Shown here: piece by piece, positions 3,864 to 9,245 of the stretch | Layout: each line of letters opens with the position of its first letter | Numbering within the stretch: the first letter of the stretch is position 1 | Virus record (IMG/VR): IMGVR_UViG_2675903654_000011 | Direction: 5' to 3' (one strand) | DNA: 9,245 nt | Origin: a virus | Taxonomy: Duplodnaviria > Heunggongvirae > Uroviricota > Caudoviricetes | The notes under the pieces: model-generated | Seen by the model: only the letters and a program-made list of their open reading frames with translations | Database searches by the model: none | Told to the model about the DNA's origin: nothing | Program-made: the position numbers and the translations under genes

Positions 3864-4021
3864 GGTAAAAACGGTTTGCGGTAAAGCGAGAGTTAAGTAG
3901 AATTGCTGCGGGTGCTTGAGGCTATCTGCCTCGGGCATGCCACCGTAAGGCAGACAGAGAAAAGCCCCAGTTAACATTACGCGTCCGGCAAGACGCTTAA
4001 CATTAATCTGAGGCCATATCT

Positions 4022-4234
4022 ATGCTCTACACACGTAGGTTAGCCTCTTACGTGCCGAAAGGCAAGGAGAAGCAGGCTATGAAGCAGCAAAAGGCGATGT
4101 TAATCGCCCTGATCGTCATCTGTTTAACCGTCATAGTGACGGCACTGGTAACGAGGAAAGACCTCTGCGAGGTACGAATCCGAACCGGTCAGACGGAGGT
4201 CGCTGTCTTCGTAGACTACGAATCTGAGAAGTAA
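4022..4234 (+). CDS. mok: mok-like reading frame (in-frame 19-codon N-terminal extension of hok)
   Basis: ATG at 4022 follows GAGG (4011-4014) and reads in frame into hok. The 70-aa versus 51-aa pair matches the chromosomal mokC/hokC arrangement, where both share a stop codon. Confidence 0.5.
   Translation: MLYTRRLASYVPKGKEKQAMKQQKAMLIALIVICLTVIVTALVTRKDLCEVRIRTGQTEVAVFVDYESEK
4079..4234 (+). CDS. hok: Hok/Gef-family type I toxin (51 aa), closest to HokD/HokC as recalled
   Basis: The product MKQQKAMLIALIVICLTVIVTALVTRKDLCEVRIRTGQTEVAVFVDYESEK is near-identical to the recalled HokD (RelF) sequence. AAGGAG lies upstream, and a structured 3' region with a terminator follows. Confidence 0.85.
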   Translation: MKQQKAMLIALIVICLTVIVTALVTRKDLCEVRIRTGQTEVAVFVDYESEK

Positions 4235-5393: not shown

Positions 5394-5683
5394 TGGTGGA
5401 TTTACGTAAAGCGGCGCGGGGGCAGATGTGCACCGTCAGAATTCCTGGCTACTGCAATCACGATCCGGAAACGTCTGTGCTGGCGCATTACCGACTGGCG
5501 GGAACGTGCGGAACAGCGATAAAGCCACACGATATGCAGGCAGCGATTGCCTGTAGCTCGTGCCACGATTTAATCGACGGGCGGGTAAAAACCGGCGATT
5601 ACACCAAAGAAGAATTACGCCTGATGCATGCAGAAGGTGTTTTTCGCACACAAGAAATCTGGAGAAAGGAGGGATATTTATGA
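5393..5683 (+). CDS. ybcO: YbcO-like putative zinc-binding nuclease (96 aa)
   Basis: The product MVDLRKAARGQMCTVRIPGYCNHDPETSVLAHYRLAG...IACSSCHD matches recalled E. coli YbcO in length, cysteine/histidine spacing and N-terminus. The start overlaps the upstream stop. Confidence 0.75.
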   Translation: MVDLRKAARGQMCTVRIPGYCNHDPETSVLAHYRLAGTCGTAIKPHDMQAAIACSSCHDLIDGRVKTGDYTKEELRLMHAEGVFRTQEIWRKEGYL

Positions 5684-6234
5684 TTTACCCAACGAATACA
5701 GGAAAAAGCGGAGAACACCTTCGTCTCACCACGCTGGAAAGTGTCTGGATTCAGGGAAAACTACGTATGTGGGGGCGCTGGTCGTATATTGGCGGCGGTA
5801 AGACGGGAAATATGTTTAACCAGTTGCTGACCTCTAAAAAGCTAACAAAAACGGCAATTAATGAGGCGCTCCGGAGGATGAAAAAAGCAGGTCTGGACAA
5901 ACCTGAACTTGAGGCTTTTTTGCGGGATATGATCAACGGCAAGCAAAAAAGCTGGCTGGTGCATTGTACTGATGCAGAGGCGTTATGCATTGATCGGGTG
6001 ATTAGTGAAGTGCTGGCAGAACACCCAGGATTGATTTGTATCCTCCGGCAAAGATATGAAGGGCGGGGGATGAGTAAGCGCAAAATGGCTGAATTGCTAA
6101 ATGATGCACACCCTGAGTGGTGTTTTCGGACGTGCTGCAGTCGGGTAGATGTATGGCTAAATCTTGCTGAATATATGCTCTATCTGCCGATGCGTGATGC
6201 ATTCTCTTCCGGGTATTTAAAAACTGTCTGTTGA
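5680..6234 (+). CDS. Q: Probable late-gene antiterminator Q (Q21/Q82-like), about 184 aa
   Basis: ATG at 5680 follows AGGAGG and overlaps the ybcO-like stop (ATGA). It is the last gene before a PR'-like promoter and a terminator roughly 80 nt downstream, and the downstream lysis gene is S21-type. The call rests on context and on a motif (LESVWIQGKLRMWGRWSY) that is recalled only loosely; the family is not confirmed. Confidence 0.5.
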   Translation: MIYPTNTGKSGEHLRLTTLESVWIQGKLRMWGRWSYIGGGKTGNMFNQLLTSKKLTKTAINEALRRMKKAGLDKPELEAFLRDMINGKQKSWLVHCTDAEALCIDRVISEVLAEHPGLICILRQRYEGRGMSKRKMAELLNDAHPEWCFRTCCSRVDVWLNLAEYMLYLPMRDAFSSGYLKTVC

Positions 6235-6260
6235 CTCAATCTGTTATCCGGGGCTATATT
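6231..6260 (+). promoter_or_regulatory. PR'-like late promoter (-35 TTGACT, 18-bp spacer, -10 TATATT)
   Basis: TTGACT at 6231-6236 overlaps the Q-like stop codon; TATATT at 6255-6260. The layout parallels lambda PR' (TTGACT/TAAATT) lying immediately after Q. Confidence 0.5.
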
Positions 6261-6322
6261 CCTCACGCGCCAGCAAAATCTGGCGTCGGGATTAGGAACC
6301 CCGGATAGAGACCGCGACAGAC

Positions 6323-6345
6323 ACACGCCGCGAGCGTGTTTTTTA
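6323..6345 (+). terminator. tR'-like rho-independent terminator
   Basis: ACACGC (6323-6328), loop CGCGA, GCGTGT (6334-6339), then TTTTTT (6340-6345). Confidence 0.65.
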
Positions 6346-6507
6346 TTGTCGTATGCACGCGCACATCTGAATTATGGTGGGGCGTATGGGGGAGCTGAAA
6401 AGCTCGCCGGTTGGTTTCCCGGTAGTTCCTAACCCTGTACGTCTCACCACCCGATGATTAGGAACCTGACGGTGGTGATGGTTTAGAAACCACCAGAGGG
6501 CGTCATT

Positions 6508-7089
6508 ATGACAACTCAAATTTCTGTTGAAACTCTCTCCCCGATCACCCATAACCAGATTCCTGTTATTACCACCGAACTTTTGGCGCAGTTGTACGGT
6601 GCTGGAGTTAAGAACATTCAAAATAACTACGCCAGAAATGCTGAGCGCTTTATTGAAGGAAAGCATTTTTTCAAAGTGGCTGGCGATGCCCTGAAAAATT
6701 TGCGGGTAGCTTTAAACTACTCACAAAATTTGCAACCATCTTTAAGAGGGTTACAAATTTCCCCGAAAGCCCGCTCCCTCATCCTCTGGACAGAACGCGG
6801 AGCAGCCCGTCATGCCAAAATGCTGGAAACCGATCAGGCGTGGGATGTGTTCGAAAAGCTGGAAGACTGCTATTTCAGACAAAAGGATCCGTCAGCGCCA
6901 GTTTCATGCCAGAAAAGTTACGACACGCGAGTTCTCTGTTATCAGAGAGGCGGTGTCACTGTTTCCACAATTCAGTTACGGGATGATGATATTGTTATTT
7001 CCCTTGAGTCATGGCTGGAACTGGCGAGAGCCAATGGTTGGTTTGTTGTTCGCAGAGATAAACTGGTGGAAAGGTTGATGCAGCTTTAA
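6508..7089 (+). CDS. ORF6N / KilA-N-like domain protein, putative antirepressor-type regulator (193 aa)
   Basis: ATG at 6508 follows AGAGGG. The N-terminal segment ITTELLAQLYGAGVKNIQNNYARNAERFIEGKHFFKV resembles the ORF6N DNA-binding domain of phage antirepressors. An intrinsic terminator follows about 100 bp downstream. Confidence 0.55.
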   Translation: MTTQISVETLSPITHNQIPVITTELLAQLYGAGVKNIQNNYARNAERFIEGKHFFKVAGDALKNLRVALNYSQNLQPSLRGLQISPKARSLILWTERGAARHAKMLETDQAWDVFEKLEDCYFRQKDPSAPVSCQKSYDTRVLCYQRGGVTVSTIQLRDDDIVISLESWLELARANGWFVVRRDKLVERLMQL

Positions 7090-7188
7090 AAAAGTTCTTG
7101 CATTTTTGCACATAAACTGCTTCAATTCCTGTTTGCTTCGCAAAGCTGTATCGCGAGGCGAAACGCAAGTTTTTTTCGCACAAGGAAG

Positions 7189-7209
7189 CCACCGGAAGGT
7201 GGTTTTTTT
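7189..7209 (+). terminator. Rho-independent terminator after the ORF6N-like gene
   Basis: CCACC (7189-7193), loop GGAA, GGTGG (7198-7202), then seven T (7203-7209). Confidence 0.6.
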
Positions 7210-7332
7210 GTGTCCGTAATATACAGCAGCGCAATAAATTCGCTGGTGGTTATTAATACCGTTCTTTCAGCTTGCTGGCTTTTTCGACAAGAGTTATTGG
7301 TATGTCACGTTAACCGGAAAGGGTAAAAAGAC

Positions 7333-7530
7333 ATGCTGAAACAGCAGGATATGACAGAAACCGCCAGAGTTGTGTTTGATGAATTAAGCGTTACCGAACC
7401 GGCGACAGTCGGGGAGATTGCGCAGAATACTTACCTTTCACGCGAACGCTGCCAGTTAATACTGACCCAGCTGGTTATGGCGGGTCTGGCAGACTATCAG
7501 TGCGGTTGTTACAGACGCATTCAGTCCTGA
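7333..7530 (+). CDS. Small protein (65 aa), possible winged-helix DNA-binding fold
   Basis: ORF with a weak RBS (AAGGG). The pattern TVGEIAQNTYLSRERCQLILTQLVMAGLA resembles small FeoC-like winged-helix proteins. This is a weak inference. Confidence 0.4.
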   Translation: MLKQQDMTETARVVFDELSVTEPATVGEIAQNTYLSRERCQLILTQLVMAGLADYQCGCYRRIQS

Positions 7531-7563
7531 AGGCTTTTTATTTGTGGTAAATGGGCGGCTGGT

Positions 7564-7571
7564 GGGGGGGG
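7564..7571. repeat. Homopolymeric G8 tract within a G-rich segment (GGGCGGCTGGTGGGGGGGGCGGC)
   Basis: Read directly from the sequence. It lies about 95 bp upstream of the AraC-family gene start. Confidence 0.9.
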
Positions 7572-7665
7572 CGGCACCTGTCAGTCCTTTGCTTATGTGT
7601 TGATGATAATTTACCTTTTGGGGCTATAATTGAGCTAACCAATTGCTAATGAAAGTAAAATTATA

Positions 7666-8379
7666 ATGGCTGTTGTCTGTTCAGTTATCATGGTTTGCTC
7701 CCCAATTAATATTTTTCTTGAAAAGGATACGTTGTCACTTAAGCCAGGCTCAGTCGTTCTGGCCACCAAATGCATCAGGGAGCTTTTCCTTATGCATTAT
7801 GGCAAAGTTAAAATTGTCGATATAAGCGAATCCGTCGTAAGTCAATATCTGGAAAGTCAGCATAAGCTGACGAGGACTCGTCTGACTGACATTCCGCTTT
7901 ACCTGTTGCTGGAACCCAACAATCCTGCGTTGGCTGCGGCTTTAATTACCAGCCAGGGATTTTCCGGAGAGGTCACGGATATGTTTCTTATGATGGCCTG
8001 CCTGTCTCTGTTTGAAACAGATGAACGGATGTCATTGTTTTTAAGTGGATGTTTATCCAGCATAAGTGCCAAAGTCAGGGCGATAATTCAGACAGATATA
8101 TCAGCAAGCTGGACGCTTGGTGCGATTGCTCTACAGTTGCATATGAGTGAGAGTTTGTTAAAGACAAAACTGAAAAATGAAGGGGGCATGTTCAGTCGCT
8201 TGTTGCTGGAAGAGCGGATGCGTGTTGCTGTAAATATGTTATGTTCCCGGCATGGATATGGACAGGCTGTAGCAGAAAAATGCGGTTATTCAAGCAGGTC
8301 CTACTTTATTTCTGTATTTCACCGCTATTATGGCTTCCCGCCAGACAGATATGTATCCAGGCAAGGGCTTGATTATTGA
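7666..8379 (+). CDS. AraC/XylS-family transcriptional regulator (prophage-encoded), up to 237 aa
   Basis: The C-terminal 100 aa (WTLGAIALQLHMSESLLKTKLKNEGGMFSRLLLEERMRVAVNML...GYSSRSYFISVFHRYYGFPPDRY) is a typical double-HTH AraC domain. The start is uncertain: ATG 7666 overlaps a TATAAT hexamer, and ATG 7690 or 7792 are alternatives. Confidence 0.8.
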   Translation: MAVVCSVIMVCSPINIFLEKDTLSLKPGSVVLATKCIRELFLMHYGKVKIVDISESVVSQYLESQHKLTRTRLTDIPLYLLLEPNNPALAAALITSQGFSGEVTDMFLMMACLSLFETDERMSLFLSGCLSSISAKVRAIIQTDISASWTLGAIALQLHMSESLLKTKLKNEGGMFSRLLLEERMRVAVNMLCSRHGYGQAVAEKCGYSSRSYFISVFHRYYGFPPDRYVSRQGLDY

Positions 8380-8407
8380 TTTTCATCTGATTATTATTTT
8401 TTGGCTC

Positions 8408-8483
8408 GGCCCTTTAGCTCAGTGGTGAGAGCGAGCGACTCATAATCGCCAGGTCGCTGGTTCAAATCCAGCAAGGGCCACCA
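8408..8483 (+). tRNA. tRNA with CAU anticodon, ileX/ileZ-like (tRNA-Ile2 if lysidine-modified, otherwise Met)
   Basis: Acceptor GGCCCTT/AAGGGCC, D-stem GCTC/GAGC, anticodon loop CTCATAA, T-loop TTCAAAT, discriminator A, encoded CCA. Closely resembles recalled E. coli ileX. Confidence 0.85.
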
Positions 8484-8484
8484 A

Positions 8485-8561
8485 CCGCCACTAGCTCATC
8501 AGGAAAGAGCGTCAACCCTTTAAGTTGAGTGTGCGAGGTTCGAGTCCCCGGTGGCGGTCCA
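8485..8561 (+). tRNA. tRNA-like gene, isotype uncertain (positional anticodon UUU with a non-canonical C33)
   Basis: Acceptor CCGCCAC/GTGGCGG, D-stem GCTC/GAGC, anticodon stem TCAAC/GTTGA with loop CCTTTAA, T-loop TTCGAGT, encoded CCA. There is one A.C mismatch in the T-stem. It lies 1 nt after the previous tRNA. Confidence 0.6.
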
Positions 8562-8563
8562 GT

Positions 8564-8639
<76 letters not shown>

Positions 8640-8642
8640 TAT

Positions 8643-8717
<75 letters not shown>

Positions 8718-8723
8718 GTTAGA

Positions 8724-8769
8724 GTCTTTCAGTCTGCGATGATGGGAAATCCCGGAGTGACTGAAAGAC
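8724..8769. repeat. Perfect 11-bp inverted repeat GTCTTTCAGTC / GACTGAAAGAC with 24-nt spacer
   Basis: Read directly from the sequence, immediately after the last tRNA. A second 14-bp inverted repeat pair follows (TTATGAATGATCGC 8777-8790 and GCGATCATTCATAA 8836-8849). Confidence 0.85.
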
Positions 8770-8924
8770 GTTTAGGTTATGAATGATCGCTTTTTTTTGC
8801 AAAATTGCTGTGCAGAAATACTAACCTTCGGGCAGGCGATCATTCATAAGCACTCTGCTTTTATTCCGATTAACTGTGGGTGGTTTGTTGGATAGAGTGC
8901 TTTCCTGACTGTAGATCCAATTTC

Positions 8925-8949
8925 GCCCGCTTTTGCGGGCTTTTCTTTT
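8925..8949 (+). terminator. Rho-independent terminator about 60 bp upstream of the holin gene
   Basis: GCCCGC (8925-8930), loop TTTT, GCGGGC (8935-8940), then TTTTCTTTT. Confidence 0.65.
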
Positions 8950-9009
8950 CAAATCCCTTTCATCTCTCAGTGTAAAACTACGCCATCCGTTATTTGCGGA
9001 GGTGAGGCT

Positions 9010-9121
9010 ATGAAATCCATGGACAAAATTTCAACGGGCATTGCCTACGGCACCTCCGCAGGCAGTGCTGGCTACTGGTTTTTACAGTGGCTTGATCAAG
9101 TCAGTCCGTCACAGTGGGCTG
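9010..9121 (+). pseudogene. S: S21-type (pinholin) holin gene, interrupted after about 37 codons by an insertion sequence
   Basis: RBS GGAGGTGAGG precedes the ATG at 9010. The product begins [37 protein letters not shown], matching the recalled phage 21 S protein including the Met1/Met4 dual-start motif. After nt 9121 the frame runs into IS terminal sequence instead of the transmembrane domains. Confidence 0.8.
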
Positions 9122-9245
9122 TGAACCGCCCCGGGTTTCCTGGAGAGTGTTTTATCTGTGAACTCAGGCTGCCAGATCATCGTTTCCGATGGAAGCATAA
9201 TAAGCTTTTTCTGCTTCTGCCGGAGGAGTATGGCCCAGCCTTCCC
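9122..9245 (-). mobile_element. Terminal inverted repeat and adjoining end of an IS3-family element (IS629/IS1203-like), running off the window edge
   Basis: The terminus TGAACCGCCCCGGGTTTCCTGGAGAG begins at 9122 and matches the recalled right end of IS629 in reverse complement. The minus strand encodes a transposase C-terminus ending at 9164. Confidence 0.75.
9164..9245 (-). CDS. IS3-family transposase OrfB, C-terminal 26 codons (partial, continues beyond the window)
   Basis: Minus-strand translation of 9245..9164 gives ...[26 protein letters not shown] followed by a stop (complement of 9164-9166), about 40 nt inside the inverted repeat, as expected for an IS3-family orfB. Confidence 0.65.

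Follow-up and report, generated by a model that had tools for sequence, protein, structure and literature searches.

The interval between the antiterminator gene and the lysis genes of a lambdoid prophage segment, IMG/VR record IMGVR_UViG_2675903654_000011 (Caudoviricetes), was analysed within a stretch of 9,245 nucleotides, hereafter called the window. A first-pass annotation, made from the sequence alone, had described three putative DNA-binding proteins there, and suggested that they could form an undescribed and self-contained regulatory or anti-repression circuit. Our analysis indicates that the interval is very probably a mosaic of two independent and already-known prophage modules, brought together by recombination at the cargo site of the late operon. 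One module is an antirepressor-like gene (ant) with an IsrK/C4 antisense-RNA control region directly upstream of it, a region that the first-pass annotation had overlooked. The other contains a gene for a 65-amino-acid helix-turn-helix (HTH) protein and an AraC-family regulator gene of the psrB type. Both the PsrB module and the IsrK/C4-ant cassette are of described kinds, and they do not make up a new three-protein circuit. The ant cassette has its own antisense specificity here and lacks a coupled leader open reading frame (ORF); it is otherwise of a known kind.

The two modules are separable. When complete E. coli genomes were searched (5426 genomes, coverage of at least 80%), the small HTH gene together with psrB was found in 725 genomes and the ant cassette in 125, and the two were joined in 35. 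In typical O157:H7 strains, the antiterminator gene of the DUF1133 family is followed directly by the homologue of the window from position 7088 onwards, without ant, and in Shiga toxin (Stx) phages the same ant cassette is located in the nin region. The breakpoints of DNA homology fall between the three genes.

The three ORFs are real: they were found at the coordinates first proposed (6508-7089, 7333-7530 and 7666-8379, all on the plus strand), and all three have gene annotations in E. coli Z1323CEC0019, a chicken isolate whose chromosome is identical to the window from 5600 to 9124. Profile searches confirmed the ORF6N domain of the first product (Pfam ORF6N, 69 bits versus a cut-off of 27.8, E = 4.1e-19) and the AraC-type domain of the third (Pfam HTH_AraC, E = 3.4e-13; HTH_18, E = 9.8e-10). 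The left border of the interval is a Q-like antiterminator gene (5680-6234, plus strand), which matches Pfam DUF1133 with E = 1.2e-106, Phage_antitermQ weakly (27.5 bits) and PHROG 753, labelled 'anti-termination protein Q-like'. A holin gene starts at 9011 on the right. The proposed cargo position between Q and S is correct, as is the absence of toxin genes; the window contains no stx gene. Four transfer RNA (tRNA) genes are located at 8408-8717.

The AraC-family regulator (7666-8379, 237 amino acids) was compared to proteins of known prophages. It is 99.6% identical, with a single amino-acid difference, to WP_000301797.1, which lies within the coordinates of O island 57 (OI-57) of strain EDL933, 92% identical to the copy in the Stx2k phage phiSTEC1575-Stx2k, and 91% identical to the full-length reading frame of ECs_1087 in strain Sakai. 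PsrB (z2104) is located in OI-57 of EDL933 (1,849,324-1,929,825), and PsrA (z1789) and PsrB, which are 90% identical to each other, activate gadE/hdeA and repress type III secretion (reviewed in PMC10877973 and PMC8565820). ECs_1087 was named psrA in PMC13502914 and was taken as such here; its 91% identity to the window protein agrees with the published identity between PsrA and PsrB. In the OI-50 region of the corrected EDL933 assembly no AraC homologue was found, and z1789 was not located there. The OI-57 range of that assembly contains a DUF1133 gene, the same 65-amino-acid gene, the AraC-type gene encoding WP_000301797.1 and then tRNA-Ile. Similarly, prophage Sp4 of Sakai contains the small ORF ECs_1086, the AraC-family gene ECs_1087 and tRNA-Ile, and this order of small gene, AraC gene and tRNA-Ile is common to Sp4, OI-57 and one Stx2k phage. 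On this evidence the window carries psrB, with a single residue changed; WP_000301797.1 is equated with z2104 by its position. In Sakai Sp4, ECs_1086 is frameshifted after codon 49.

The first-pass annotation had raised a Psr/PatE type as a possibility for this regulator, and had considered the question undecidable by sequence. The comparison decides it in favour of the Psr/PatE type. The regulator that ends Sakai prophage Sp1, which should be PatE by its position, is 37% identical to the window protein over the full length, including the first 42 residues; PatE (z0321) is thus a distant relative. Because the similarity covers these first residues, the start codon giving 237 amino acids is favoured over the shorter one annotated in Sakai, where psrA is annotated from an internal ATG (195 amino acids) although the 237-amino-acid frame is unbroken and its conservation extends to PatE. 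Among curated families, the protein is closest over its full length to YdeO and GadX, which both regulate the gad system, in keeping with a gad-system regulator, and the structure of the GadX DNA-binding domain (3mkl) matches the protein at E = 5e-19. By analogy with PsrA and PsrB, the window copy would be expected to activate gadE/hdeA and to repress type III secretion. Its locus resembles the PsrB and PsrA loci of O157:H7 in the C-terminal AraC-type double HTH of the product, in the small gene upstream, in a tRNA-Ile(CAU) gene 28 bp downstream and in the location between Q and the lysis genes. It differs from them by the ant cassette inserted between Q and the psrB module and by the tRNA set, which is Ile-Lys-Thr-Gly instead of Ile-Arg(-Arg).

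The psrB module appears to begin with the start of a late operon. A 36-nucleotide stem-loop followed by a T-run is located at 7178-7213 on the plus strand (-23.9 kcal/mol, z = -6.4). The terminator first noted at 7189-7209 lies inside this stem-loop; the consensus scan gave that hairpin on the minus strand alone, and folding confirmed it on the plus strand. The terminator is thus real, whereas it looks less like a private terminator of the cargo genes, as it keeps its position, with changed stems, in 5 to 6 loci, among them loci without ant. The 80-90 nucleotides that precede it are common to the loci with a DUF1133 gene; loci of two other Q types have unrelated sequence there, and all of these loci retain the terminator and the leader behind it. 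Since the terminator is kept in loci without ant and the preceding segment varies by Q type, it looks more like a candidate tR' of the late operon, which would also end the ant transcripts. The segment from 7090 to 7175 (plus strand) is specific to the Q type and, from its position after the DUF1133 gene in loci without ant, is a candidate for the late promoter PR' and its qut site. It contains a weak promoter-like sequence, TTGCAT-17-TTCAAT, at 7098-7126. We infer that 7090-7213 comprises a Q-specific late promoter region and tR', and that the ant cassette was inserted between it and the Q gene. The leader that follows (7214-7332, plus strand) is near-invariant across four upstream contexts. 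The arrangement resembles that of the Stx phages 933W, VT2-Sakai and phiSTEC1575-Stx2k in the Q-to-holin interval, in the tRNA position and in a terminator soon after the Q-proximal segment, and phiSTEC1575-Stx2k also has the same small gene and its AraC gene directly upstream of the tRNAs and stx2k. In contrast to these phages, the window has no toxin genes. Should 7098-7126 be a promoter, the lysogen would be expected to make a short, terminated transcript of about 75-85 nucleotides, similar to the PR'-tR' transcripts of Stx phages.

Alternatively, the stem-loop at 7178-7213 could be the terminator of the ant operon alone, with the small gene and psrB being autonomous morons that are expressed from their own promoters, outside the Q-dependent transcript. 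The promoter-like ATGATA-16-TATAAT at 7603-7630 ahead of the AraC gene is in line with this, as are the expression of psrA in lysogens and the weakness of the proposed PR' hexamers. However, in loci without ant the hairpin is found directly after Q at the same position, loci of different Q types differ in the sequence ahead of it, and the unit of small gene and AraC gene lies upstream of stx2k and the lysis genes, where Stx phages have PR'-tR'. We therefore regard autonomous morons as a possible but rather doubtful explanation, which is moreover compatible with a late-operon position.

The second line of evidence concerns the ant cassette. Its putative promoter, TTGACT-18-TATATT at 6231-6260 (plus strand), matches 10 of the 12 consensus positions, is conserved in Gifsy-1 and VT2-Sakai and resembles PisrK. 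It places the transcription start at about 6267, which agrees with the start of the Rfam isrK match (69.4 bits, gathering threshold 50). This match corresponds to an IsrK-like small RNA (sRNA) of 78 nucleotides at 6267-6344 (plus strand), with its own terminator at 6323-6344. The IsrK-like RNA contains two target mimics, b1 (TTAGGAAC, 6292-6299), which occupies the loop of a hairpin, and a1 (GAGACC, 6308-6313), and a marginal match to the Rfam c4-a1b1 target element was found at 6254-6307 (47.8 bits, gathering threshold 46.7). It is followed by a C4-type antisense RNA at 6370-6454 on the plus strand (Rfam C4, 67 bits, gathering threshold 45, E = 1e-12), which folds into the structure of the family with -42.9 kcal/mol and exposes two segments, the a' loop (TGGTTTC, 6412-6418) and b' (GTTCCTAA, 6425-6432). 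The translation-initiation region of ant (6444-6507, plus strand) shows exact complementarity to the C4 loops. A leader hairpin (6444-6451/6471-6478) presents b2 (TTAGGAAC, 6458-6465) in its loop, and a2 (GAAACCA, 6486-6492) is located three bases 5' of the ant Shine-Dalgarno sequence (GAGGG, 6496-6500). The ant gene itself (6508-7089, plus strand) starts 54 nucleotides after C4 and encodes an ORF6N-domain, antirepressor-like protein of 193 amino acids that matches PHROG 2379 (anti-repressor) at E = 1e-90. None of the RNA genes of this cassette was annotated in the records examined.

The complementarity between these elements was compared in nine phages. Pairings were scored by exact-complement searches on ungapped sequences, as MAFFT placed one-base gaps in b' and b2 inconsistently; these searches also replaced whole-RNA RNAduplex predictions, which gave uninformative long duplexes. 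In the window, b' (GTTCCTAA) is the exact complement of TTAGGAAC at both b1, in the IsrK loop, and b2, in the loop of the ant leader. The a' segment is the exact complement of a2, and a1 pairs with a' via one G-U. In all nine phages b1 and b2 have one and the same sequence, which b' complements exactly; six versions of it occur. Similarly, a' is complementary to a2 throughout, in five versions, and a1 follows in most phages. Loops and targets thus show compensatory changes in three ways, which indicates that the pairings are real. Among the nine, the b version of the window is shared with strain YC21-F17 alone.

An alignment of the cassette leader to the isrK locus of Gifsy-1 and the leader of ant in VT2-Sakai has 87% column identity, and Ant is 54% identical over its full length to AnrP of Gifsy-1. 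The short IsrK RNA of Gifsy-1 switches on anrP translation from a read-through transcript, and AnrP then raises antQ expression, which is followed by prophage induction (Hershko-Shalev et al. 2016, PMC4825925). The window shares with the isrK-orf45-anrP locus a homologous promoter, an IsrK RNA, a C4-like region (the STnc1160/orf45 region), an antirepressor-like protein and the order Q, isrK, ant/anrP, tRNA and lysis genes. In contrast, the Gifsy-1 antQ has no detectable similarity to the DUF1133 gene of the window, its b version is TTGGCGT, as in VT2 (window, TTAGGAAC) and its a version ATCACCG (window, GAAACCA), orf45 is truncated and uncoupled from ant in the window, and no isrJ match follows the window ant. 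The homologue of orf45 varies in length from 14 to 45 amino acids across the nine phages and overlaps the start codon of the downstream gene in Gifsy-1 alone. As this frame is not conserved, the conserved mechanism is RNA pairing rather than a leader peptide. No LexA box was found in a search near ant, and thus there is no sign of direct SOS control.

The immI regions of phages P1 and P7 (c4, icd, ant) are a second system of this kind. There, a single transcript contains the target and also yields, by cutting, the antisense RNA, and the payload is an antirepressor; two exposed segments pair with the upstream sites a1 and b1 and with the sites a2 and b2 in the ribosome-binding region, and the specificity varies between phages, as seen in the heteroimmunity of P1 and P7. 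The window cassette is similar in its antisense loops, its upstream and downstream targets, its antirepressor payload and its varying specificity, and has both the C4 and the c4-a1b1 Rfam matches. It differs from immI in belonging to a lambdoid phage, in releasing its upstream target segment as an sRNA of its own that ends at a terminator, in having no icd-like coupled ORF and in encoding an ORF6N protein as Ant.

By analogy, Ant would be the antirepressor payload of an immI/IsrK-type cassette, the inactivation of a repressor being carried over from AnrP and from Ant of Phi24B. Another explanation is that the ORF6N protein is a DNA-binding transcription factor, or a defence or exclusion protein, that uses the RNA-gated cassette without being an antirepressor. 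The ORF6N domain is of a DNA-binding type, the protein lacks the C-terminal P22AR/ANT domain of the Ant proteins of Stx phages, it has weak PADLOC matches to the candidate defence family PDC-S05 (E = 2e-6), and neither a PDB sequence search nor the curated NCBIfam models gave a match for it. These features are set against the full-length similarity to AnrP, the expression of which raises antQ transcription and induces Gifsy-1, and against PHROG 2379 and 13 further PHROGs labelled anti-repressor, which are annotations and not tests. Taken together, a function other than anti-repression is unlikely.

The third possibility, the self-contained circuit selected as a unit that the first-pass annotation had envisaged, is highly improbable: the three genes are adjacent, on the same strand and all predicted to encode nucleic-acid-binding or regulatory proteins, and their exact arrangement is found at no less than 99% identity in the 35 complete genomes, including O145:H28 (for example RM12581 and RM13514) and some O157:H7, but these copies are near-identical, as expected from the inheritance of one mosaic, and hence uninformative on selection for linkage, and the separate distributions and homology breakpoints given above, the strong terminator that parts ant from the other two genes and the usual pairing of the small gene with a methyltransferase all speak against it.

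Several points weigh against our interpretation of the interval as two working modules of known kind. The functional steps of both modules are carried over from homologues. The identification of WP_000301797.1 with z2104/PsrB rests on its OI-57 position and on the 90% relation to psrA. The C-terminal half of Ant is just weakly similar to AnrP. In Gifsy-1, translation of AnrP requires the leader ORF orf45; the orf45 homologue has 27 amino acids in the window (6374-6457) and ends 50 nucleotides before the ant ATG; as it is truncated and apart from ant, the coupling mechanism of Gifsy-1 cannot apply unchanged. The consensus scan missed the hexamers of the putative PR', which are weak. Finally, the holin gene is disrupted at about 9122, where an IS629/IS1203 insertion sequence (IS) has its end, and the lysis cassette of the window is probably defective, so that the lytic read-out may no longer work.

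With regard to orf45, the last bases of its homologue are ATGA, and a mini-ORF of 10 codons (6454-6486) begins within this overlap. This mini-ORF spans b2, and its stop is located 21 nucleotides before the ant ATG. A relay of short ORFs could perhaps substitute for the orf45-anrP coupling of Gifsy-1.

Based on these homologues, the following working of the mosaic can be proposed. In the first module (6231-7089), the constitutive-looking promoter would produce the 78-nucleotide IsrK-like RNA, which stops at its own terminator, and read-through transcripts would carry the C4-type antisense RNA and then ant. The a' and b' segments of C4 would pair with a2 and b2, just 5' of the Shine-Dalgarno sequence, and ant would remain untranslated, as in P1 immI. 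Because both target sequences are also present in the IsrK RNA (as b1 and a1), this RNA could titrate C4 and thereby switch on ant translation, as shown for IsrK of Gifsy-1. Ant would then inactivate a prophage repressor and lead to induction, as judged from AnrP and other Ant proteins; the CI-like repressor of this prophage (WP_000410105.1) is encoded upstream of the window. The second module (about 7090-8400) would open the late operon, first with a promoter region specific to the Q type and a strong tR'-like terminator, then continuing with the conserved leader, the 65-amino-acid HTH gene, psrB with its own promoter, and the tRNAs. Expressed in the lysogen from its own promoter, PsrB would activate gadE/hdeA, resulting in more acid resistance and in an indirect repression of LEE (locus of enterocyte effacement) type III secretion, following the published work on PsrA and PsrB. 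After induction, Q-modified RNA polymerase may read through the terminators to the lysis genes.

The 65-amino-acid protein (7333-7530, plus strand) matches PHROG 331 at E = 1e-36. Its best Pfam match is TrmB (17.9 bits), below the cut-off of 25.6, and no match was found among NCBIfam models or PDB sequences. The AlphaFold model (pLDDT, the predicted confidence score, of 85) is a three-helix HTH, with helices at residues 4-18, 26-31 and 37-49, and a short helix at 53-59 replaces the hairpin of the wing. The top Foldseek matches of the model are all winged-helix domains (PcaR/IclR, PefI, Z-alpha), with TM scores of 0.63-0.66 and probabilities of up to 0.98, at E values of about 0.5. The earlier description as winged-helix-like is therefore plausible for the modelled fold and stops short of proof, given the sub-threshold Pfam match and the E values of the structural matches. 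The ratio of non-synonymous to synonymous substitutions (dN/dS) is 0.06-0.21 compared to relatives, which indicates that the gene is real and under purifying selection; synonymous sites are saturated in comparison with Klebsiella and Buttiauxella.

The 65-amino-acid gene follows Q genes of three Pfam families in prophages of Escherichia, Salmonella, Klebsiella and Buttiauxella. The next gene is most often an N6/N4 DNA methyltransferase gene and not an AraC gene, and the small gene is thus no partner specific to the AraC gene. In loci of the enterohaemorrhagic E. coli (EHEC) type, psrB takes the place of the methyltransferase gene. In Salmonella, Klebsiella and Buttiauxella, the small gene and an N6/N4 methyltransferase gene 150 nucleotides downstream of it form a recurrent pair after Q, and the region between the two is highly conserved; it may be an operator or an RNA structure. 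It is conceivable, as a guess, that the 65-amino-acid protein controls the slot downstream of it. The intergenic region before the AraC gene in the window (7531-7665, plus strand) is conserved up to about 7600, beyond which the sequence is specific to AraC loci and includes the promoter-like site at 7603-7630. The only two Chi sites of the window (GCTGGTGG, plus strand), at 7242-7249 and 7558-7565, flank the 65-amino-acid gene at -91 and +225 from its start. This pair is kept in 8 of the 9 E. coli loci examined, and the downstream Chi is also kept in the Salmonella, Klebsiella and Buttiauxella loci despite the saturation of synonymous sites. The downstream site lies in the conserved intergenic element, just to the left of the point at which the AraC-type and methyltransferase-type loci diverge.

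The main value of these results is a correction of annotation. The AraC gene, which is labelled in RefSeq just as a 'helix-turn-helix domain-containing protein', is in effect psrB, whose product regulates acid resistance and type III secretion; the ant region is a switch of the IsrK type known from Gifsy-1, in which RNA gates the antirepressor. Such corrections help to predict which prophages are inducible without SOS signalling in multi-lysogens and which ones carry host-rewiring regulators, and they leave the current understanding of either system unchanged. More tentatively, the matched a and b versions might represent an RNA addressing system among co-resident prophages and, separately, the 65-amino-acid HTH protein might be a widespread controller of the cargo slot of the late operon, a wider reading to which we give little weight at present. 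If it were true, the address versions would decide which sRNA switches on the antirepressor of which resident prophage, and P1/P7 heteroimmunity would be extended to polylysogenic EHEC.

The four tRNA genes downstream of psrB (8408-8717, plus strand), identified by ARAGORN, Rfam tRNA and RefSeq, have the anticodons CAU (Ile in RefSeq), Lys-UUU, Thr-UGU and Gly-UCC. Most related prophages and Stx phages have Ile-Arg-Arg at the tRNA site, and Sakai Sp4 shares the first tRNA alone. The IS end that interrupts the holin gene is 100% identical to copies in Sakai and Z1323CEC0019. In Z1323CEC0019 the IS element is located about 295 bp further on, and this difference in position indicates that the window comes from another strain. 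Upstream of the antiterminator gene, a hok/sok type I toxin-antitoxin locus was found at 3910-4234 (Rfam sok, 112.6 bits, at 3910-4084), and a Hok/Gef gene is annotated at the matching place in Z1323CEC0019.

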